Source: a virus. Taken from it: 64,000 bases of DNA. Location: the IMG/VR virus record IMGVR_UViG_3300044643_000612, positions 1 to 64,000 of that record. One strand, 5' to 3'. Shown one piece after another: positions 257-64,000 of the stretch; the stretch's first letter is position 1, and each line of letters begins with the position of its first letter. The translations under genes and the position numbers were made by a program. The notes under the pieces are model-generated. The model was not told the origin of the DNA, made no database searches, and saw nothing but the letters and a program-made list of their open reading frames with translations.

Positions 257-1506
257 GGTACCTGTCCCTGTTCAGCGGCATCGAGGCTGCGAGCGTGGCG
301 TGGGAGCCGCTGGGGTGGGAGTGCGCCGGCGTCGCGGAGGTGGATGCGTTCGCCAGCGCGGTCCTGGCACACCGCTACCCGTCCGTCCCGAACCTCGGCG
401 ACGTGACGAAGATCGACGCGGCGGATCTCGCCGCACTGGGTCGCATTGACCTTGTGGTATTTGGATCGCCCTGCCAGGACCTGTCCGTGGCGGGCAAGAG
501 GGAGGGGCTGGCCGGTGAGCGCAGCGGACTGTTTCACGTCGCCGTCGACATCGTGCGATGGGCAAGGGATTACTGCGGATGCCGATGGGCCTTGTGGGAG
601 AACGTCTGCGGAGCCTTCAGCAGCAACAAGGGACGCGACTTTGCAGCAGTGGTTGGCGAACTGGCGGGTGTCGACGTCCCCGTCCCGCCCAAGGGCTGGG
701 GCACGGAGGGCGCCGCCGTTGGCTCCGAAGGAATGGTCGAGTGGGCCGTGCTGGACGCGCAATGGTTCGGAGTGGCGCAACGGCGCCGTCGCGTGTTCGC
801 TCTCGCAGACTTTGGAGACTGGGCCAGTCGACCGCCGGTTCTTCTTGAGCCCCAAAGCCTGCGCGGGGATCCTCCGCCGCGCCGAACGGCGGGGAAAGGC
901 ACTTCCGCCGATGTTGCTCCGAGCCTTGTCTCAAGTGGCCGGGGCGTCGAGCGAGCTGGAGAGACCCGAGGGCAAGACCCTGTAGTGGCGGTTCGCAGCA
1001 TCAGCACCGGAGACGTGTCCCACTGCCTGAACGCCGGCGGCATGGGGCGGATCGACTATGAGAGCGAGACGATGGTCGTCGAGCCCTACACCCTCGCCAT
1101 TCGCGGGCGGGAAGGCGGCGCAACGCTGGAGGCCCGGCAGGACGGCGTGTCGAACGCCATCCTGACACCGACAGGCGGGCGATCCGGTGTTGGCGTCGGG
1201 GCGGTTGCGGTCTGCGCGACCGGCGAGGTCTTCCACACGCTTCAAGCCGACGGGTTTGACGCCAGCGAGGATGGCACAGGGCGTGGTGGTGGTGCGGTTG
1301 TGCAGGCTGGCCTCCAAGTCCGCCGCCTCACCCCCACAGAGTGCGAGCGCCTCCAGGGCTTCCCTGACGGCCACACGCTGATCCCCTACCGCGGCAAGCC
1401 CGCAGCAGACGGACCCCGATACAAAAGTTTGGGAAACAGCATGGCCGTCCCGGTCATGGCCTGGATCGGGCGACAGATCGAAATTGCAGAGAGTGGCTTG
1501 ACATGA
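253..1506 (+). CDS. C5 cytosine DNA methyltransferase
   Basis: motifs LSLFSGIEA (I), GSPCQDLS (IV), WENV (VI), QRRRRVF (VIII), RRLTPTECERLQGFP (IX), LGNSMAV (X). Confidence 0.95.
   Translation: MRYLSLFSGIEAASVAWEPLGWECAGVAEVDAFASAVLAHRYPSVPNLGDVTKIDAADLAALGRIDLVVFGSPCQDLSVAGKREGLAGERSGLFHVAVDIVRWARDYCGCRWALWENVCGAFSSNKGRDFAAVVGELAGVDVPVPPKGWGTEGAAVGSEGMVEWAVLDAQWFGVAQRRRRVFALADFGDWASRPPVLLEPQSLRGDPPPRRTAGKGTSADVAPSLVSSGRGVERAGETRGQDPVVAVRSISTGDVSHCLNAGGMGRIDYESETMVVEPYTLAIRGREGGATLEARQDGVSNAILTPTGGRSGVGVGAVAVCATGEVFHTLQADGFDASEDGTGRGGGAVVQAGLQVRRLTPTECERLQGFPDGHTLIPYRGKPAADGPRYKSLGNSMAVPVMAWIGRQIEIAESGLT
515..985 (+). CDS. out-of-frame polypeptide nested in the methyltransferase (M.EcoHK31I beta-like)
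   Basis: GGAGG at 501-505 then GTG; CSLSQTLETGPVDRRFFLSPKACAGILRRAERRGKALP resembles, from memory, the alternative-frame beta chain of two-polypeptide C5 MTases. Confidence 0.6.
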   Translation: MSAADCFTSPSTSCDGQGITADADGPCGRTSAEPSAATRDATLQQWLANWRVSTSPSRPRAGARRAPPLAPKEWSSGPCWTRNGSEWRNGAVACSLSQTLETGPVDRRFFLSPKACAGILRRAERRGKALPPMLLRALSQVAGASSELERPEGKTL

Positions 1507-1718
1507 TGACCGGCGAAGAGTTGCGGGACGCCCGCGAAGACCTTAAACTCACCCGACAGGAGTTGGCTGACATCCTGCGCTTCGGCGCGAACGGCGAAAG
1601 GCGGATCCGGCGCATGGAGCGAGACGAGATCGAGGTGTCCGGCCCCGTGTCGGTCGTCATGGAGGCCCTGCTTGATGGCTGGTCGCCCGAGGACGGCTGG
1701 CAGTCGGATGACGGCTGA
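1503..1718 (+). CDS. XRE-type helix-turn-helix protein
   Basis: MTGEELRDAREDLKLTRQELADIL...RIRRMERDE HTH pattern; coupled to the upstream stop. Confidence 0.8.
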   Translation: MMTGEELRDAREDLKLTRQELADILRFGANGERRIRRMERDEIEVSGPVSVVMEALLDGWSPEDGWQSDDG

Positions 1719-1956
1719 CGAGGTGGTGGCGCGGCTCACCGGAGAGGCGGCTTACCTGAGCCTCACCCATGGCGTCCTCGTCATGGCCGATGGGCAGCGC
1801 ATCCCGCTCGTGCGCATGTACGACAAGGACGGAGACCCGACGGTCCACGCGACCGAGGCCGTCACCTTCCTGCTGAACGGCCCGGACTGCGGCGCCCCGA
1901 GCGGCTACGTCCTGCTGCCGTGCGACATGTTCGACCTGCTGGGAACCCTGCATTGA
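1708..1956 (+). CDS. hypothetical protein
   Basis: ORF fills the gap and overlaps both neighbours. Confidence 0.55.
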   Translation: MTADEVVARLTGEAAYLSLTHGVLVMADGQRIPLVRMYDKDGDPTVHATEAVTFLLNGPDCGAPSGYVLLPCDMFDLLGTLH

Positions 1957-4493
1957 CAGTCACCCGCGAGCAACTGATGGCCCTGTCCAAGGAGGACCTG
2001 CTGTTCATCGACTGGCAGGGCCGCTGGCGCGCAACGGCCAGGCCGGACCAGTTGCTCCCCGACACCGGGTGGTCGCAGATCGGCGTGCAGGCCGGGAGAG
2101 GATACGGCAAGCAGCTTTGCAAAGAGACGCCGATCCCGGCGCCCTCCGGCTGGCGGCGACTCGGCGACCTGGAGGTCGGCGACGAGGTCTTTGACGAGAC
2201 CGGCGCCCCGTGCCGCATCGTCGCCACCTACGAGCAGCCCGTCACTCGCGCTTACCGCCTGACTTTCAGCGACGGGGCGACGATCACGGCCTGCGAGGAC
2301 CACCTGTGGGTCACTTGGACCCACCGCGAGCGCAAGCAGTTCATCCGCCACCACCCCGAAGCCGACGATTTCCCTGAAAACTGGCCGGCGCACGTCCAGC
2401 CCCTGTGGGATTCCCGCGGCAGCGTCGTCGGCGCCGTCGGACCCGAGGTGCGCACCACCGCCGAGATCGTTGACACGCTGGTTTTCGGCACGCGCGGCGA
2501 CACGAACCACTGCATCCCGACCTGCCACCCCCTGCAATACCCCAAAAAGGCCCTGCCAATCGACCCTTGGGCGCTCGGCTACTGGCTTGGCAACGGTGCG
2601 ACCGTAGGCCCCGGCATCAGCACCCACCCCGACGACACGGACCTCGTCGTGGCGCGCTACGAGGCCCTTGGCTACAGCGTGACGCGCTACGCCAACGGCA
2701 GGGACGGCTACGTCAAGGGCCTTTTGGAGCCGCTCAGGGCCGTTGGCGTGGTCGGCGACAAGCATGTGCCCCGAGACTACCTGCAAGGCTCTGTGAAGCA
2801 GCGCGAAGCCCTCCTGGCGGGCCTGCTGGACAGTGACGGGCACTGCTCGCTGTCGGCGGGTCACATCGAGTTCTGCTCGACCCTGCGCTGCCTTGCCGAT
2901 GCGGTGGTTGAGTTGGCGCGTTCCCTCGGCCAGAAGCCCGTCCTGCTGGAAGACCGGGCGCGGCTCAACGGCAAGGACTGCGGCCCGCGCTACCGGGTCA
3001 AGTGGCGCAGCACCTACCAGCCGTTCTCGCTGCCCCGCAAGGCTGCGGCGTGGCGCACGCCCGGCGCTCAGGCCCTGCGCAACCGGCACCGCATGATCGT
3101 CGCCGCCGAGGAGGTGGCGCCGGTGCCCATGCGCTGCCTGACGGTCGACAGCCCGAACAGCATGTTCCTGTGCGGCGAGGCGATGATCCCGACGCACAAC
3201 ACCCGGGTCGGTGCCGAGTGGCTCGGGCAGAAAGCCTACCGGGACACCAACAAGTTTCCGTTCCGGGTCATCGCCCCGACGCTCAACGACGTGCGGTTCA
3301 CCTGCTTCGAGGGCCAATCCGGCCTGCTCAACGTCATCCCGCCCGAACTCGTCGCCGACTACAACAAGACCAACCTGCTGATCACCCTGATCAACGGCGC
3401 CACGATCCGCGGCTTCGGCACAGAGGAGCCCGAGCGACTGCGGGGGCCAAATAGCGCCGGCGACTGGGGCGACGAGGTCGCGGCGTGGATCCGCGATCAA
3501 GAGGCGTGGGACCAGGCCGCGTTTGGTCGGCGTCTCGGCGTCAACCCGCAGGTCGTCTGGACCTCGACGCCCAAGCCCAAGACCCTGATCCGCAACCTGA
3601 CCGAGCCCAAGCCCGGGCGCATCATCATCCGGGGTTCGACCTACGACAACCGCGAGAACCTCGCAGAGTCGTTCTACGACGAGTTGAAGAAGTACGAGGG
3701 CACCAAACTCGGGCGGCAGGAACTGGAAGGCGAACTGATCGACGCCGAGGAGGGCGGCATCATCGCCCGCTCCTGGTTCAAGTTGTGGCCGGCGAGCAAG
3801 CCCCTGCCCAAGTTCGAGTGGATCATCATGTCCCTTGACACGGCCTTCACCGAGCGCACCCTCGACAAGCGCACCCACGACCCGGACCCGTCGGCCTGCG
3901 CCGTGTTTGGCATTTTCTGGCACGAGGACGTGATGAACGTGCTGGTCCTTGACTGCTGGAGCGACCACCTCGGGATGCCCGACCTCATCACCCGGGTGAA
4001 GCGCGAATTGAACACCGCCTACGGCGACGACGAGGACACGGCGCTCATCAAGCCGATGTTCGGCCCCGCCAAGCCCATGACCAGCGGTCGCAAGCCCGAT
4101 CTGCTCATCATCGAGGACAAGGGCAGCGGCATCAGCCTGCGCCAGTCGCTGTCGAAGGAAGGCATACACGCCTACCCCTACAATCCCGGTCGCGCCGACA
4201 AGCTGGCCCGCCTGCATATGGTAAGCCACCTGTTCGCTCGCGGTTATTTTTGGTTGCCCGAAAGCGAGAAACGGCCCGGCAAGCCGCGTACTTGGACCGA
4301 GCCCGCGCTGGACCAACTTTGCTCCTTCCGGGGCGGGGGTTCCATCAAGCACGACGACTTCGTGGACGTTTTCAGTCAGGCTTCGCGTGTCATTATGGAC
4401 AAGGGCCTACTTTCCGGTGTAAAGCGTGAAAGCAAGTCCGTCCGCGAGGCCCCGGCACCGCCGAAACCCCGCGTGAACCCCTACGCCATCTGA
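1953..4493 (+). CDS. terL: terminase large subunit, intein-containing
   Basis: Walker A AGRGYGK|T, RLRGPN, WGDEVA (Walker B), TSTPK, nuclease SLDTA and HDDFVD; start TTG 1953 or ATG 1977. Confidence 0.95.
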   Translation: MTVTREQLMALSKEDLLFIDWQGRWRATARPDQLLPDTGWSQIGVQAGRGYGKQLCKETPIPAPSGWRRLGDLEVGDEVFDETGAPCRIVATYEQPVTRAYRLTFSDGATITACEDHLWVTWTHRERKQFIRHHPEADDFPENWPAHVQPLWDSRGSVVGAVGPEVRTTAEIVDTLVFGTRGDTNHCIPTCHPLQYPKKALPIDPWALGYWLGNGATVGPGISTHPDDTDLVVARYEALGYSVTRYANGRDGYVKGLLEPLRAVGVVGDKHVPRDYLQGSVKQREALLAGLLDSDGHCSLSAGHIEFCSTLRCLADAVVELARSLGQKPVLLEDRARLNGKDCGPRYRVKWRSTYQPFSLPRKAAAWRTPGAQALRNRHRMIVAAEEVAPVPMRCLTVDSPNSMFLCGEAMIPTHNTRVGAEWLGQKAYRDTNKFPFRVIAPTLNDVRFTCFEGQSGLLNVIPPELVADYNKTNLLITLINGATIRGFGTEEPERLRGPNSAGDWGDEVAAWIRDQEAWDQAAFGRRLGVNPQVVWTSTPKPKTLIRNLTEPKPGRIIIRGSTYDNRENLAESFYDELKKYEGTKLGRQELEGELIDAEEGGIIARSWFKLWPASKPLPKFEWIIMSLDTAFTERTLDKRTHDPDPSACAVFGIFWHEDVMNVLVLDCWSDHLGMPDLITRVKRELNTAYGDDEDTALIKPMFGPAKPMTSGRKPDLLIIEDKGSGISLRQSLSKEGIHAYPYNPGRADKLARLHMVSHLFARGYFWLPESEKRPGKPRTWTEPALDQLCSFRGGGSIKHDDFVDVFSQASRVIMDKGLLSGVKRESKSVREAPAPPKPRVNPYAI
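2112..3200 (+). mobile_element. class 3 intein (363 aa) with LAGLIDADG endonuclease in the TerL P-loop
   Basis: starts QLCKETPIP; block B ACEDHLW; block F MRCLTV; ends IPTHN/T; LGYWLGNG and LLAGLLDSDG motifs; removal restores GRGYGKT. Confidence 0.9.
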
Positions 4494-4500
4494 GGCCCGC

Positions 4501-7005
4501 ATGGATCCCGAAGACGACCAGCCGGAAGAGGGCGAGTTCTACGAGGTCGAGGACGACAGCGAGAGCGATGTCGTCGACACGGAGGACGGCGGCGCTATCG
4601 TCACGCTGGACGAGGGCGACAGCGACGAGCCCTCCAGCGATTTCCTACAGAACCTGGCCGAGACACTGCCTGAGACCGAACTGAAGGCTCTTGCCACTCA
4701 GTTTCTGGACTTTGTGGAGCGCGACCGGGAGGCCCGGGCCAAGCGCGACGAGCAATACGAGGAGGGCATCCGTCGCACCGGCCTCGGGGACGACGCGCCG
4801 GGCGGCGCGCAGTTCCAGGGCGCGAGCCGTGTTGTCCACCCGATGCTGACCGAGGCGTGCGTGGACTTCTCGTCCCGCGCCATCAAGGAGTTGTTCCCGG
4901 CAGGCGGGCCGGCCAAGGACTTCATCCCCGGCAAGGTCACTCGCGAGAAGGTGCTGAAGGCGCGTCGCAAGACGGCCTACATGAACTGGCAGTTGACGAA
5001 GCAGTCGCCGGAGTTCCGCTCGGAACTGGAGCAGCTTCTGACGCAGGTGCCGCTCGGCGGCGCGCAGTACCTCAAGGTCGGCTGGAAAGAGACGAAGAAC
5101 CGTCCCAGCTTCCTGTTCGTCGCCATCGACGAGATGCTCATCCCCTTCGCGGCGACCAGTTTCTACACCGCGCAGCGCAAGACCCACGTCCAGTACCTGA
5201 CGCAACTGGACTACGACCAGCGCGTCAAGTCCGGCATGTACCGCGACGTGGACCTGGTCCCGGCGGGCATGGACCCTGACCGCACCAAGGCCGACGTCGC
5301 CAACGACAAGGTCGAGGGCCGCGAAGAGAGCGCCTTCAACGAGGACGGCCTGCGGACGATCTTTGAGATCCACACCACCGTCGACATCGAGGACGACCGC
5401 ACGGACGGGCCAGCGCCCTACATCCTCACTGTGGACAAGGTGACGTCCAAGGTCCTGAGCATCTACCGCAACTGGGACGAGGAGGACGACGCGCAGGAAG
5501 AACTCCAGTGGTTCGTGGAGTTCCCCTTCGTGCCCTGGCGGGGCGCATACCCCATCGGCATCACGCACATGATCGGCGGGCTGTCCGCCGCGGCGACGGG
5601 CGCCCTGCGCGCCCTGATGGACTCGGCGCACATCAGCAACAGCCAGACCATGCTGAAGCTGAAGGGTGCCGGCATCGGTGGCCAGAGCATCGACATCCAG
5701 CCCACGCAGGTGGCGGAGATCGAGGGCGGCATCAACGTGGACGACGTCCGCAAGGTCGCCATGCCGCTGCCGTTCAACCAGCCCTCCGGCGTTCTGTTCC
5801 AACTGCTCGGCTTCCTCGTGGAGTCGGGCAAGGGCGTCGTGCGCACGACCATGGACGACGTGTCCGACGGCAACGCCAACGTGCCGGTCGGCACGACCAT
5901 GGCGAAGATCGAGCAGGGCATGGTGGTGTTCAGCGCCATCCACATGCGGCTGCACAACGCCATGGGCCGGATGCTCGATATCCTGCACCGCCTCAACGGC
6001 ATGTACCTCGACGACGAGGCGCAGAAGGACGAGATCGGCGAGGAGATCGCGACCCGGGCTGACTTCGCCGGGCCGATGGACGTCATCCCGGTCAGCGACC
6101 CCAACATCTTCTCCGAGACCCAGCGCATCGCGCAAATCCAGACCATCGCCCAGCGGGCGGCGGTGCAGCCGGGTCTCTACAACGCGCGCAAGGTCGAGGA
6201 GCGCATCCTTGACACGCTGAAGGTGCCGAACGCCGCCGACCTCTTGGTGCCTCCCGTCGAGCCCAAGGAGCAGAACGCGGTGGCCGAGAACGTGGCACTG
6301 ACCATGGGTCGGCCCGTCATCGCCTTCCCGCAGCAGGACCACATCGCTCACCTGTCGGCGCATCTCGGCTACATGCTGAACCCGGTGCTTGGTGCCAGCC
6401 GGCTGATCGCCCCGCAGTTCCTGCCCGGCGTGCTGAACCACATCAAGGAGCACATGGCACTGTGGTATGCCCAAAAGGTCTACGAACTGAGCAACGAGGC
6501 TACGGGCATGGACATCGGCGAGGCCGTGCGCGACAACAAGAGCGTCGAGGACAAGCAGTCTTTCGACCGGATGCTGGCGGAAGCGTCGAACACCGTGTCC
6601 GCTCGTGCTGCGGATGCGTTCGGTGCGCTGCCGCCCGTGATTGAGCAGGCCGTGCAGATGCTTCAGGCCATGTCGCCGCAAGGCCCGCAGGATCCGGCGG
6701 TAATGGCCGCTCAGGCCGAGACGCAGCGCCGGGCGGAGGCTGACAAGGCCAAGGCGGAACTGGACGCCCAGCGCCTCCAGATCGAGCAGCAGGACAACCA
6801 GGTCGATGCGCAGATGCAGCAGGCCAAGATGGCCGCTGAGATGCAGGCAGACCAGATGCAGCAGCAGAGCGAAGACCAGCGATCTGCGCTGGAGATGCAA
6901 GCCCGCGTCGCGATGAACGACGCCGACAACCAGACGGCCATGTTGCTTGCCCAAATGGGCGGCGGCGAGCCTGCGGTGAACCCGAACCCCAACCCCCAGC
7001 CCTAG
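4501..7005 (+). CDS. portal protein
   Basis: 834 aa directly after terL; VVHPMLTEACVDF motif; Q-rich coiled-coil C-terminus as in P22-like portals. Confidence 0.88.
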   Translation: MDPEDDQPEEGEFYEVEDDSESDVVDTEDGGAIVTLDEGDSDEPSSDFLQNLAETLPETELKALATQFLDFVERDREARAKRDEQYEEGIRRTGLGDDAPGGAQFQGASRVVHPMLTEACVDFSSRAIKELFPAGGPAKDFIPGKVTREKVLKARRKTAYMNWQLTKQSPEFRSELEQLLTQVPLGGAQYLKVGWKETKNRPSFLFVAIDEMLIPFAATSFYTAQRKTHVQYLTQLDYDQRVKSGMYRDVDLVPAGMDPDRTKADVANDKVEGREESAFNEDGLRTIFEIHTTVDIEDDRTDGPAPYILTVDKVTSKVLSIYRNWDEEDDAQEELQWFVEFPFVPWRGAYPIGITHMIGGLSAAATGALRALMDSAHISNSQTMLKLKGAGIGGQSIDIQPTQVAEIEGGINVDDVRKVAMPLPFNQPSGVLFQLLGFLVESGKGVVRTTMDDVSDGNANVPVGTTMAKIEQGMVVFSAIHMRLHNAMGRMLDILHRLNGMYLDDEAQKDEIGEEIATRADFAGPMDVIPVSDPNIFSETQRIAQIQTIAQRAAVQPGLYNARKVEERILDTLKVPNAADLLVPPVEPKEQNAVAENVALTMGRPVIAFPQQDHIAHLSAHLGYMLNPVLGASRLIAPQFLPGVLNHIKEHMALWYAQKVYELSNEATGMDIGEAVRDNKSVEDKQSFDRMLAEASNTVSARAADAFGALPPVIEQAVQMLQAMSPQGPQDPAVMAAQAETQRRAEADKAKAELDAQRLQIEQQDNQVDAQMQQAKMAAEMQADQMQQQSEDQRSALEMQARVAMNDADNQTAMLLAQMGGGEPAVNPNPNPQP

Positions 7006-60673: not shown

Positions 60674-61024
60674 GTGAACAGCGCGAACTTAAGGATGGCG
60701 GTTATCACTTACAACGCCACGCTTCTTAACCAGTCACAGGACAGTCGCGACCAACCCGCCGCTATGCGCGCCGCGCTTGCCCCGTTTCTTGAGCGCATCA
60801 AGCAACTAGAGGGCGAAAACGCAGAGTTAAAAGATTGGCGACGCAGGGCCGAAAAGATGATGTCCGTCATGAAGGCAAATGCAATCGACAACATCAACTC
60901 TCGGGCGCGGCCCCTGACCGGATTTGTTTCCACCTTGACCGCAGAACAGAAGGAAGCGGCGATGTCGTATGAAGGTGACGACCACCACGGACCCGAGACC
61001 ACCGCCAAGGAGGCTGACCAGTGA
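60674..61024 (+). CDS. hypothetical protein ending KEADQ
   Basis: GAGG plus GTG junction; ERIKQLE segment. Confidence 0.6.
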   Translation: MNSANLRMAVITYNATLLNQSQDSRDQPAAMRAALAPFLERIKQLEGENAELKDWRRRAEKMMSVMKANAIDNINSRARPLTGFVSTLTAEQKEAAMSYEGDDHHGPETTAKEADQ

Positions 61025-61064: not shown

Positions 61065-61244
61065 ATGATGATTTCTCAAGAGACCTGCCTGCTGCTCATG
61101 CTCGTTATCGGCATGATATCTACTCTGGGTTTTCAATGGTGGCCTGACTGGACAAAAGTGCAGCGGCGGCTGTCCATCTTGTGGATTGTGTTCTGGCTTG
61201 GCCCGCCTCTGTATTTCGTCTGGACCAAAGGAGTGCTGGGATGA
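61065..61244 (+). CDS. small two-TM membrane protein
   Basis: AAGGA RBS; hydrophobic; its 3' end is also the window start. Confidence 0.55.
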   Translation: MMISQETCLLLMLVIGMISTLGFQWWPDWTKVQRRLSILWIVFWLGPPLYFVWTKGVLG

Positions 61245-61285
61245 CCTATCCGCCCGAACTGCAAGCCTACTACGACGCCCACGAC
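61159..61285 (+). repeat. 127-bp exact direct repeat, copy 2
   Basis: identical to 1-127. Confidence 0.95.
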
Positions 61286-61846: not shown

Positions 61847-62138
61847 GAAGAAGGTTAAGGCCCGGGTGGAGGCCATGCTCAAGGCGAAGGGGGTTTACTA
61901 TTTCTTCCCGGCTACGCATGGTTACGGGCGGAGCGGAGTCCCTGACATCATCGCCTGCGACCGGGGACGGTTCCTCGCCATAGAGTGCAAGGCTGCGGGG
62001 GGTAAGCTTACGGCGCTACAGGAGCGGGAGATTACCCGTATTAGAGTAGAAGGCGGCGTGGCACTCGTCATCCACGAAGACAACTTCCACGAGTTAGAGC
62101 AAGCGTTAGAGCAAGCGCTGGAGTATACATGCCTTTAA
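61830..62138 (+). CDS. VRR-NUC nuclease (second copy)
   Basis: TPEKKVK...GRSGVPDIIAC..GRFLAIECKA...LTALQ. Confidence 0.88.
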   Translation: MAATPEKKVKARVEAMLKAKGVYYFFPATHGYGRSGVPDIIACDRGRFLAIECKAAGGKLTALQEREITRIRVEGGVALVIHEDNFHELEQALEQALEYTCL

Positions 62139-64000
62139 TTGTCTGCGATTTCGAAACATATTACGACTCCGACTTCAGCCTGTCTAAGATGACGACGGAG
62201 GAATACATCCGAAGTCCTCGGTTTGAGGTGATCGGCGTAAGTGTAAAGGTGGATAGCGAGCCGCCCCGGTGGTTCTCCGGTACCATGCCTGACATTCAGA
62301 AGTGGCTCCTGCGCTTCCCGTGGGAAACCTCCATCGCCGTGGCGCACAACGCTGCCTTCGACATGGCCATCCTGAACTGGAGTTTTGGCATTATCCCGGC
62401 GAGGATCGCGGACACGCTCTCTATGGCTAGGGCGATAGACGGACCGGATGCAGGCAACAGCCTCGCCAAGCTGGCAGAGCGCCACGGTCTCGGGGCCAAG
62501 GGCAACGAGGTTATCAACGCGCTAGGCAAACGCCGACTGGATTTCTCCACGGCACAGCTGGCGGCTTACGGCGAGTACTGCTGCAACGACGCCGACCTGA
62601 CCTACGACCTGTTCCAGAAGCAAGTGGCGGGCTTCCCGCTAAGCGAGCTCCGGGTGATCGACCTAACCATACGCATGTTCACCGAGCCGGTACTGCGACT
62701 GAGCCAACCGGTGTTGGACGGCCACCTCACTGAGGTGCTGGACCGCAAGGCGAAACTTCTCGATGGGTTAGGCGTCTCCACCGAAGCCCTTATGAGCAAC
62801 GACAAGCTGGCTAAGGTCCTTGCAGACCTAGGTGTGGAGCCCCCGACTAAGACCAGCCCCACCACGGGCAAAGTGGCTTGGGCCTTCGCTAAGAACGACG
62901 AGGGGTTTAAGGCCCTACTGGAACATGAGGACGAGCGCGTCCAAGCCATTGTGGCTGCGCGGCTAGGGATCAAGTCCACGTTGGAGGAGACCCGGACCGA
63001 GCGGTTCATCGACATCTCCAAGCGCGGGACCCTGCCCGTACCCCTACGCTACTACGCAGCTCACACGGGGCGCTGGGGTGGCGACGACAAGATCAACCTC
63101 CAGAACCTGCCGCGCAAATCCCCACTCAAGAAATCCATGCGCGCGCCCAAGGGGTTCCTGTTGGTGGACTGCGACTCCAGCCAGATTGAAGCGCGGACCC
63201 TAGCTTGGCTGGCCGGACAAGACGACCTTGTCCAGTTCTTCGAGAAGAACAACGCCGAGATCGCGGCGGGCGTTGCCAAGGCGGACATGCAGTTCGACCC
63301 CTACAAGATCATGGCCTCCGGCATCTACGGGGTACCTGTGTCGGAGGTGACGGACGACATGCGCTTCGTAGGCAAGACAACTATACTGGGTTGTATTGCC
63401 GAGGGAACCCCGGTACTAACTGATCGCGGCTGGGTAGCGATTGAGGAGGTAACTACCTCTGACCGGCTGTGGGACGGAGAGGAGTGGGTATGCCACCAAG
63501 GGCTAGTGCAGAAAGGCACCAAAGAAACGTTGAGTCTTTGCGGGCTTTGGTTGACGCCGGATCACAAAGTGTTGTGCGGGACCCAGTGGCTGCAAGCGCA
63601 CTCAGTGGTTCAAGACAGAAATACCCTCTCCCAAGCGTTGGATACAGGAGCGGTCAGCTGGTTGTGTCCGGATACGTCAAAGGGCCAAGGAGAGGGGTAC
63701 TATCCATCATCGTGCGGTGCGACTGCGGGTTCCCAGAATACACCGTTGATAGGCACAACTTCAAGGACTTCAAAAGCACCCGATGCCCCCTCTGCGGTAG
63801 ACGGGAAGGACACCGAAAACGTTATTGGAAGTATATATCGGCGCTCCCCGACACTGCGCACCGAGAGCGACTGCTCAACCGACTATCGGCTGCTATCAGC
63901 CGCTGCCACGCACCCAATAACCGGATGTACGCAGACTACGGAGGTAGGGGTATCGCAGTATACAAACAGTGGAGAGCTGACCGCGCCGAGTTCCTACGGT
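62129..64000 (+). CDS. polA: DNA polymerase A (second, intein-containing, truncated by the window end)
   Basis: CDFETYY, AHNAAFD, YCCND, AHTGRWGG...NLQNLPR, CDSSQIEAR, GKTTILG; no stop before the window end. Confidence 0.9.
   Translation, partial: MPLIVCDFETYYDSDFSLSKMTTEEYIRSPRFEVIGVSVKVDSEPPRWFSGTMPDIQKWLLRFPWETSIAVAHNAAFDMAILNWSFGIIPARIADTLSMARAIDGPDAGNSLAKLAERHGLGAKGNEVINALGKRRLDFSTAQLAAYGEYCCNDADLTYDLFQKQVAGFPLSELRVIDLTIRMFTEPVLRLSQPVLDGHLTEVLDRKAKLLDGLGVSTEALMSNDKLAKVLADLGVEPPTKTSPTTGKVAWAFAKNDEGFKALLEHEDERVQAIVAARLGIKSTLEETRTERFIDISKRGTLPVPLRYYAAHTGRWGGDDKINLQNLPRKSPLKKSMRAPKGFLLVDCDSSQIEARTLAWLAGQDDLVQFFEKNNAEIAAGVAKADMQFDPYKIMASGIYGVPVSEVTDDMRFVGKTTILGCIAEGTPVLTDRGWVAIEEVTTSDRLWDGEEWVCHQGLVQKGTKETLSLCGLWLTPDHKVLCGTQWLQAHSVVQDRNTLSQALDTGAVSWLCPDTSKGQGEGYYPSSCGATAGSQNTPLIGTTSRTSKAPDAPSAVDGKDTENVIGSIYRRSPTLRTESDCSTDYRLLSAAATHPITGCTQTTEVGVSQYTNSGELTAPSSYG
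63392..64000 (+). mobile_element. class 1 intein in PolA motif B (partial)
   Basis: GKTTILG|CIAEGTPVLTDRGWVAIEEV...RLWDG...LTPDHKVL. Confidence 0.88.
63586..64000 (+). CDS. HNH-type homing endonuclease overprinted out of frame in the intein (partial)
   Basis: GQLVV...VRCDCG...STRCPLC...SRCHAPNNRMYADYGGRGIAVYKQW...EF; start GTG 63586 or ATG 63490. Confidence 0.75.
   Translation, partial: MAASALSGSRQKYPLPSVGYRSGQLVVSGYVKGPRRGVLSIIVRCDCGFPEYTVDRHNFKDFKSTRCPLCGRREGHRKRYWKYISALPDTAHRERLLNRLSAAISRCHAPNNRMYADYGGRGIAVYKQWRADRAEFLR

Follow-up and report, generated by a model that had tools for sequence, protein, structure and literature searches.

The second family A DNA polymerase (PolA) gene of a viral DNA listed in IMG/VR as IMGVR_UViG_3300044643_000612 most probably harbors, in its motif B, a complete, non-canonical intein whose homing nuclease is encoded by a separate gene overprinted in the -1 frame. 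The DNA studied here, called the window throughout, comprises bases 1-64000 of this 84,337-base record. The sequence past position 64000, which contains the remainder of the intein, was retrieved as the window's own locus (L002). Both frames are open over the DNA that they share, substitutions follow one frame in some parts of the intein and the other frame elsewhere, and the start codon of the nested gene is conserved. Among related loci we found a cassette that had been swapped on an otherwise identical polymerase gene as well as derivatives in which the nested gene has decayed.

A contiguous intein in the polymerase frame

The host gene matches the Pfam families DNA_pol_A (E 2.7e-25) and DNA_pol_A_exo1, the 3'-5' exonuclease domain (E 3.3e-07), and the DNA polymerase family phrog_17 (E 1e-85). 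Following the extein sequence GKTTILG, the intein starts at position 63392 with CIAEGTPVLT...LTPDHKVL; it terminates with NLMTYDIAYAGPRNRYTVATDAGPIIVHN, after which the extein sequence CGYGMG follows, and the junction IIVHN/CGYGMG is in one frame with both exteins. The insertion site (GKTTILG/CGYGMG) is presumably PolA motif B. An N-terminal Cys, the block B sequence Thr-x-x-His and a C-terminal His-Asn in front of the extein Cys place the element among the class 1 inteins. Residues C1, T55, D57, H58, Y257, D258, H280 and N281 are invariant in all 20 aligned homologues.

The initial annotation, which was made from the window alone, had noted that the intein frame becomes rich in Ser, Thr and Gly after block B and has no stop up to position 64000, and this is also how we read the sequence. 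Past the window the frame reaches His-Asn/Cys without encountering a stop, and PolA remains open to position 64837; the downstream stop that the initial annotation had named as the sign of another split intein is thus absent. The filler sits in the slot between the splicing blocks that is usually taken by an endonuclease. In an AlphaFold 2 (AF2) model of the intein frame based on 20 relatives, residues 1-93 and 247-281 have pLDDT (predicted local distance difference test) values of 85-95, and residues 94-246 all lie below 50, with block means of 25-31. The matches listed for this model in a Foldseek search against PDB are mainly inteins and Hint-type domains related to them (best E 8e-03, prob 1.00, TMt 0.39-0.46). 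The intein profile matches the Mtu RecA mini-intein (E 6e-05). Predicted model, Foldseek matches and profile match together assign a Hint fold to the splicing domain. Pfam and NCBIfam contain no match for either frame of the intein region. The evidence thus supports a contiguous and complete intein that would splice in cis.

A nuclease gene nested in the intein

Read in the shifted frame, the same DNA encodes a second protein. The initial annotation had pointed to the motifs RCDCG, RCPLC and RCHAPNNRMYADYGGRGIAVYKQW in this frame; all of them are present, and the frame is open from position 63469 to 64233. Beyond position 64000, where the earlier reading had to stop, it completes its nuclease motif (EFDMDRTDNNRGYEPGNIRFVSRAENHANRR). 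Its stop codon TAA (64231-64233) is built from the terminal CAT AAC (His-Asn) codons of the intein.

Judged from its position behind a Shine-Dalgarno (SD)-like run, ATG 63490 is the putative start of the nuclease (Table 1), with GTG 63484 as an alternative. Purine-rich GGGAYGGNGARGA-like runs made by Gly-Glu codons occur at the equivalent position in all loci printed, and each of the 25 loci has an ATG in the nested frame at +92 or +98, counted from the base with which the intein begins. This conserved ATG is built from codons of the intein motif W-D/N-G-E-x-W-V. Where the motif continues with Val-Cys, Val is encoded by GTA in 11 of 11 loci, as compared with a share of GTA among extein Val codons of 0-40%. 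In the remaining loci, codon 31, which precedes the Trp codon, ends in A without exception (14/14; one GCA, one TCA), the extein background being 16-57% of E/K codons ending in A.

The nested product matches PHROG families labelled 'HNH endonuclease', namely phrog_374 (E 5.6e-28), phrog_2081 (E 8.6e-21), phrog_3377 (E 8.6e-20) and phrog_953; NCBIfam contains no match for it. Its AF2 model (17 relatives) has a mean pLDDT of 83.6. Hence, the slot is predicted to be folded in the nested frame and unstructured in the intein frame, the contrast by which out-of-frame inteins are recognized. Four invariant Cys residues (C-x-C...C-x-x-C), a YGGRGI...W region and the motif DR-x-D...Y-x-P-x-N-x-R-F...N-x-x-N-x-R characterize the family. 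DSSP assigns strands to residues 183-187 and 199-203 and a helix to residues 204-236 of the model, that is, a strand-strand-helix arrangement at the DR...N...N motif, with N198 and N207 invariant and N210 almost invariant. This predicted order of elements and the conserved Asn residues are features of HNH nucleases. Among the predicted viral proteins of BFVD, 96 matched the nuclease model at E<=0.001, and many of these are named HNH, homing or AP2 proteins. The best match is the nested ORF (open reading frame) of Salmonella phage LPSE1, which is annotated separately in that phage. The ESM Atlas returned unnamed viral clusters and one cluster named 'Homing endonuclease family protein'.

Table 1. 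Positions of the polymerase gene, the intein and the nested nuclease gene, counted from the first base of the window
Feature	Position	Strand	Remarks
Second PolA ORF	62129..64837	+	Stop-free throughout, 902 aa
N-extein, aa 1-421, last residues RFVGKTTILG	62129..63391	+	Part of ORF 62129..64837
Contiguous class 1 intein, 281 aa	63392..64234 (window holds 63392..64000)	+	Cys1 to His-Asn, then Cys
First C-extein residue, Cys	64235-64237	+	C-extein extends to 64837
N-terminal splicing region (blocks A and B, WDGEEWV motif)	63392..63634	+	Substitutions mainly at intein third positions
Intein-frame filler, intein residues 94-246, Ser/Thr/Gly-rich, ~150 residues	63671..64129 (window to 64000)	+	Predicted disordered
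Nested ORF, putative homing endonuclease, 247 aa from ATG 63490	63490..64233 (window to 64000)	+	-1 frame (= +2 shift)
SD-like run GGAGAGGAG	63476..63484	+	From sequence reading; Gly-Glu-Glu codons of intein motif WDGEEW; 5 nt 5' of ATG 63490
Nuclease-homologous core	63634..64125 (window to 64000)	+	Constraint on nested frame; intein frame only stop-free

Distribution of the two-frame layout

When 50,697 phage records were searched by tblastn with the intein-frame product, 192 of them gave a match; in 166 the product was covered to at least 80% in one piece, at 28-36% identity. Most of these records are Salmonella Jerseyvirus phages, and Escherichia, Shigella and Sodalis Dhillonvirus phages, Pseudomonas MR14, Vibrio 97.13 and EBPR siphovirus 2 are represented as well. 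The nuclease-frame product matches identical places in Jerseyvirus and other phages at 46-48% identity. The loci opened number nine from GenBank, as against 192 phage records matched, and 25 from IMG/VR. The window locus and seven of eight opened GenBank phage loci possess an open PolA frame with a frame of about 250 codons inside it at the same -1 offset; the eighth, Salmonella phage SS3e, is an exception discussed below. Two scans of IMG/VR provided the 25 further loci, some of which are cut by contig ends (L017, L021, L032, L034). None of the 25 has an intein-frame stop across the nuclease match, and no stop occurs anywhere in the intein of the 20 loci in which both of its ends are present, the window locus among them. 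A nuclease ORF in another frame of the endonuclease slot, combined with a stop-free intein frame, is what defines an intein with an out-of-frame nuclease.

Existing annotations of this region diverge. In Salmonella phage vB_SenS-Ent1, gp37 is described as 'intein, encoding splicing domains' and no nuclease is given; in Sodalis phage SO-1, gp38/gp39 are noted as a 'type I self-splicing intron'; and SS3e is annotated with three ORFs. The homologous regions of these three phages occupy the same polymerase site and are 29-31% (intein frame) and 46-48% (nuclease frame) identical to the element described here, and in none of the three annotations is this DNA said to encode both an intein and an out-of-frame nuclease gene. 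The helicase gene of Ent1 (L004, from 4706) is annotated with a second intein carrying an in-frame LAGLIDADG endonuclease, and thus a canonical and a non-canonical intein are found in one genome.

Selection on different frames in different regions

Across the 164-codon nuclease core of the window locus, eight stops occur in the third frame and none in the intein frame; synonymous resampling predicts 4.0-4.1 intein-frame stops, with P(0 stops) = 0.0024-0.0068. The codon tests covered 12 loci, with SS3e (L013), the APSE locus (L036, other site), truncated loci and mini-inteins set aside. For cores of 163-166 codons, synonymous resampling predicts 2.4-6.9 intein-frame stops and none is observed, which corresponds to P(0) = 0.0000-0.046 under the extein codon usage of each locus. 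The third frame of these loci carries 5-23 stops.

Differences between loci are distributed over codon positions in a manner that depends on the region of the intein. In the first 240 nt, every pair with more than a handful of changes has most of them at intein third positions, and the same is true of the last 81 nt in the 11 pairs compared. By contrast, differences in the intein middle are found mostly at intein second positions, which are the third positions of the nuclease frame, in 10 of 11 pairs; the near-identical pair L003/L015 shows a tie (8 changes). Between L002 and L006, for instance, substitutions at intein codon positions one, two and three number 3, 2 and 14 in the N-terminal part (nt 1-240), 16, 73 and 23 in the middle, and 0, 0 and 5 in the C-terminal part. 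These patterns imply that one frame is conserved for the protein sequence of the splicing blocks and the other for that of the nuclease; together with the absence of stops they imply that the filler is kept only free of stops. Selection thus acts on different frames in different regions of the intein.

A comparison of conservation by frame had been proposed in the initial annotation, and it revealed the differences by region and frame given above. The proposal made there that the endonuclease is translated separately from a nested gene, while the intein may remain in cis, is supported by the codon-position patterns, by the conserved start and SD-like run, and by the frame-specific structure predictions.

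Exchange, decay and split relatives

Two IMG/VR loci from different samples, L016 and L028, differ at one position in 200-2622 and at none in 3518-5700, and they have 441 differences in the 895-nt block between these parts (2623-3517). The block consists of 136 nt of the N-extein and the intein except its last 84 nt, which suggests that co-conversion reached about 136 nt upstream of the intein. Identical flanks on either side of a differing block indicate one polymerase backbone with two cassette alleles. Such a pattern would be the expected outcome of nuclease-driven gene conversion, and the pair probably reflects a recent allele replacement by a mobile cassette. This pair shows signs of transfer independent of the exteins, another mark of out-of-frame inteins.

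Decayed forms were encountered in three loci. In L007 the nuclease frame ends early at a nonsense codon and the intein frame is still open. The mini-inteins of L033 (2708-3181, 158 aa) and L035 (2747-3157, 137 aa) have lost the nuclease core by deletion in register, and remnants of both nuclease ends can still be read in their -1 frame.

L007 (489-4186), L016 and L028 (both about 480-4200) contain a second intein site in the polymerase gene (TGRF/WGG/C...HN/S) which is occupied by a split intein. Its halves flank a free-standing nuclease of the same family (40% identity to the nested nuclease over 85 aa, E 6e-17), and hence one polymerase gene combines two intein architectures, a split one and, at motif B, a contiguous nested one. 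The first polymerase of the window also has a split intein, in this case with a free-standing GIY-YIG gene between the halves. As recognized in the initial annotation, the two N-inteins of the window are related (45% identity over 69 aa, E 2e-12) and are inserted at different PolA sites. Nested and split forms differ mainly in the openness of the filler frame, and given the split relatives in L007, L016 and L028 it is plausible that the nested layout is an intermediate toward the split state.

A third polymerase site (YGGKS/C...HN/CEN) is used in APSE-7 (L036, LR794151.1, locus about 2040-3100). The intein at this site has an open frame with many Lys, Arg and Ser residues, and its +1 frame encodes a nuclease of the family described here, which suggests that nesting arose more than once.

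Integrity of the sequence

Every sampled word of a 1101-base stretch of this DNA is contained in 20 runs labelled lake water metagenome, and contigs of four separately assembled public runs (2020-2024), which may include the source sample of the record, contain the stretch with 0 differences and 0 gaps. The -1 offset is identical in every related locus examined at this polymerase site (site b), with the exception of SS3e (L013, NC_006940.2). Compared with other Jerseyvirus phages, SS3e carries two insertions of one base each, located in short runs of G and of C (locus positions 2497 and 2770), and these account for its annotation as three ORFs (polymerase / HNH / polymerase; orf41-43). Since the insertions would also lose the C-extein frame, they are most simply explained as old sequencing errors, which they probably are. 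The initial annotation had named a single-base indel as a possible cause of the apparent overprinting; no indel was found that brings the nuclease in frame.

Weighing the evidence

Several findings count against an overprinted, working nuclease gene. The loci compared are phylogenetically related and hence do not represent independent trials. If the codons of each locus are permuted, which is a conservative and weaker test, P(0) ranges from 0.0000 to 0.30 (0.30 for L011, 0.10 for L005). Conservation of the start codon is partly forced by the conserved Trp codon TGG following Glu or Lys codons, which can end only in A or G. A further start codon at +194 in 11 of the 13 loci printed means that the true start of the nuclease is not settled. 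No RNA run carrying the 1101-base stretch is among the matches listed. Regarding the nuclease itself, no Pfam family matched it at E<=0.1, and Pfam HNH was matched at E<=1 by none of the 17 family members. Comparison of its sequence profile with PDB chains gave rows at chance level only; the whole model had no Foldseek match in PDB at E<=0.001; and a VIA wide search with it returned no informative match, the rows being dominated by the long C-terminal helix. The HNH motif contains D-H (D/H-H), with the catalytic His ending the first strand. In the family described here D186-R187 is invariant (17/17), so that Arg takes the position of this His, and catalysis by the classical HNH mechanism is uncertain. 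Given the invariant Arg and the lack of a Pfam HNH match, we file the protein, as a putative nuclease, under the phage 'HNH endonuclease' family of PHROG, a label that rests on the PHROG names and the predicted beta-beta-alpha topology.

The same two features of the nuclease, together with the decay seen in relatives (the nonsense codon of L007, the deletions of L033 and L035), could indicate that the nested ORF is a relic which no longer works as a homing enzyme, the element being in effect a mini-intein with a large tolerated loop. We consider this unlikely. Substitutions between close relatives are located mainly at nuclease third positions, as in the middle part of the L002/L006 comparison; the ATG is kept in 25/25 loci and the ORF is intact in the window locus; cassettes differ between the otherwise identical L016 and L028; and the D-R motif is present also in the free-standing nuclease between the split-intein halves. 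Still less probable is a split, trans-splicing intein whose C-part starts from the Met before block F (NLM-TYDIAY, 64154) and whose N-part is read through incidentally. Stops in the filler would then be harmless, yet none occurs in the window locus, the 7 GenBank loci with intact frames and the 25 IMG/VR loci, against the 2.4-6.9 expected. The Met does stand immediately 5' of block F in the clade of the window, but the homologues of Jerseyvirus, Dhillonvirus, MR14, Vibrio and EBPR lack it. The other site of L007, L016 and L028 does carry true split versions, with a free-standing nuclease of this family; it is at that site, and not at the window intein, that a stop follows the N-intein and the C-intein has a separate start, as in fractured genes. 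Programmed -1 ribosomal frameshifting, by which an N-extein/N-intein/nuclease fusion would be made, is very improbable in our estimation. It would suit the -1 position of the nuclease and its overlap of about 150 nt with the N-intein; however, 23 of 25 loci have no in-frame X XXY YYZ heptamer in the first 330 nt, and the heptamers of the other two differ in place and sequence. A canonical conserved -1 slippery site was rejected on these grounds, and the conserved ATG with its SD-like run offers a simpler route to the nuclease.

We give next to no credence to sequencing or assembly indels that hide an ordinary in-frame intein nuclease. SS3e, whose annotated N-intein and nuclease share a frame, speaks for it, and SS3e owes this to two insertions in short runs that would cost it the C-extein frame; the -1 offset recurs in all other related site-b loci examined and four public assemblies show no difference, so that an in-frame HNH domain produced by indels was rejected. 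The chance that the element is a group I intron carrying an HNH gene is equally negligible, in spite of the note attached to gp38/gp39 of SO-1. The polymerase frame is continuous, the intein residues Cys1, TxxH and HN/Cys are present, and the homologous region of Ent1 is annotated as an intein. A search of both strands of 63200-64400 gave no Rfam match at E<=1, an absence that would not decide the matter alone; in combination with the uninterrupted host frame it led us to reject the intron.

A model for the overprinted intein

We propose that ribosomes translating the polymerase frame make a precursor whose Hint fold accommodates a disordered loop of some 150 residues, free of stops, and that the intein would splice in cis and leave an intact polymerase. 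A minority of ribosomes would initiate at the internal ATG 63490 behind the SD-like run, both of which are drawn from codons of the conserved intein motif WDGEEWVC. The product would be a 247-aa nuclease composed of a Cys4 zinc-ribbon-like N-domain, a YGGRGI/AP2-like region and a beta-beta-alpha motif. By cutting intein-free polymerase alleles, this enzyme may drive the copying of the entire cassette. Internal initiation, splicing, and cleavage with its presumed target are thus the parts of the model that we infer.

It is tempting to speculate that the out-of-frame layout is a stable, selected design rather than a short-lived chance stage before a split or an in-frame intein evolves. This wider proposal has several parts, which we put forward jointly and with even odds of being right or wrong: the intein motif WDGExW(VC) would supply the nuclease with its ribosome-binding site and start, and the terminal His-Asn codons would supply the stop in this clade; the layout would have persisted through the divergence of Jerseyvirus, Dhillonvirus and freshwater phages; and it would have had at least two origins (-1 frame at motif B, +1 frame at the third site of APSE) and still be moving between genomes. 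With a borrowed ribosome-binding site and start, the dose of the nuclease would be uncoupled from that of the polymerase.

Relation to known systems

Out-of-frame intein nucleases are already known from preprints of 2025-26, and the PolA case adds to them. A cyanobacterial dnaX intein with an out-of-frame endonuclease was reportedly described by Gorbalenya in 1998, as papers citing that work have it. The dnaX intein, whose out-of-frame endonuclease is of the LAGLIDADG type (Phillips et al., 10.64898/2026.09.14.751524), resembles the PolA intein in the overlapping frame of its nuclease and in having mini-intein relatives, and differs, as far as it is described there, in nuclease family, host gene and its occurrence in cellular organisms.

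Non-canonical inteins of actinobacteriophages carry the homing endonuclease in another frame, on the same strand or antisense (Gosselin, Arsenault & Gogarten, 10.1101/2025.01.02.630785). According to the main text of that study, they share with the PolA intein a splicing domain in the extein frame, a same-strand nuclease ORF in the endonuclease slot ('frame 3'), an in-frame reading of the slot without recognizable structure, and evidence of continuing transfer; their proposed origin is the invasion of an intein by a free-standing nuclease gene. The same-strand out-of-frame case in the main text is endonuclease VII-like and the HNH inteins presented there are in frame, though the supplementary tables may list more. 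By contrast, the nuclease described here belongs to the phrog_374 'HNH endonuclease' family, its host gene is PolA (motif B), and its carriers are phages of Gram-negative hosts and freshwater contigs.

The ShiLan domain is a hidden, out-of-frame HNH endonuclease in a mycobacteriophage DNA methylase (Arsenault, Gosselin & Gogarten 2025, PMC11855218). As reported there, its insertion likewise lacks stops in the host frame, and the HNH gene, which begins a few codons into the insertion, occupies the third frame, with a TAA stop within the last four bases, TAAC; here, the intein ends with CAT AAC, the last four bases being 64231-64234. The paper also states that the insertion has no detectable splicing domain or ribosome-binding site, and its authors propose leaderless initiation at GTG, whereas the nuclease described here is flanked by a complete intein and preceded by an SD-like run with an ATG. 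A bolder corollary, offered as an idea, is that hidden-HNH insertions of the ShiLan type ending in TAAC descended from such inteins after loss of the splicing blocks.

In 'fractured genes', split inteins have a free-standing endonuclease gene between their halves (Dassa et al. 2009, PMC2677866). The nuclease ORF overlaps the coding end of the N-intein and the start of the C-intein, in the same topology as here. This layout, as outlined in that paper, is matched exactly at the other polymerase site of L007, L016 and L028 and, with GIY-YIG, in the first polymerase of the window. At motif B, by contrast, the intein frame is stop-free, no second start is needed, and the gene is unfractured. In a literature search that reached few subscription journals and no supplements we found no description of an out-of-frame nuclease in a PolA intein of Jerseyvirus, Dhillonvirus, APSE or related phages.

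Context of the record

The 84-kb record looks composite. Its first 127 bases (1-127) recur exactly at 61159-61285; G+C falls from about 65-69% to 57-62% near 60 kb; and tetranucleotide correlation is 0.96-0.97 within 1-58 kb as compared with 0.75-0.82 between this part and 61-84 kb. Polymerase and SNF2-type helicase genes are present in both parts, and Logan contigs of 23,823 bases start near 60,953. Possibly, a circular phage of 61,158 bases has been joined in this record to some 23 kb of a second phage. In view of the repeat and the breaks in G+C and tetranucleotide composition, the two polymerases of the window may belong to two phages.

Implications

The overprinted PolA intein is real, selected and widespread, and it is probably mobile. 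Its relatives provide a natural series of nuclease gain, retention and loss, with an intact nested gene, a nonsense allele and in-register deletion to a mini-intein, and the split version adjoining the nested form in the same polymerase extends this series on intein evolution. More than 160 deposited phage genomes, from work on Salmonella and E. coli, carry the gene, which most annotations missed or mislabelled. Because culturable Jerseyvirus phages carry the element, internal initiation, splicing and homing are directly testable. For protein engineering, the intein bears on how long a disordered insert a cis-splicing intein can tolerate. About 150 residues of the precursor of an essential protein are constrained only against stop codons, and this bears on the evolution of overlapping genes.

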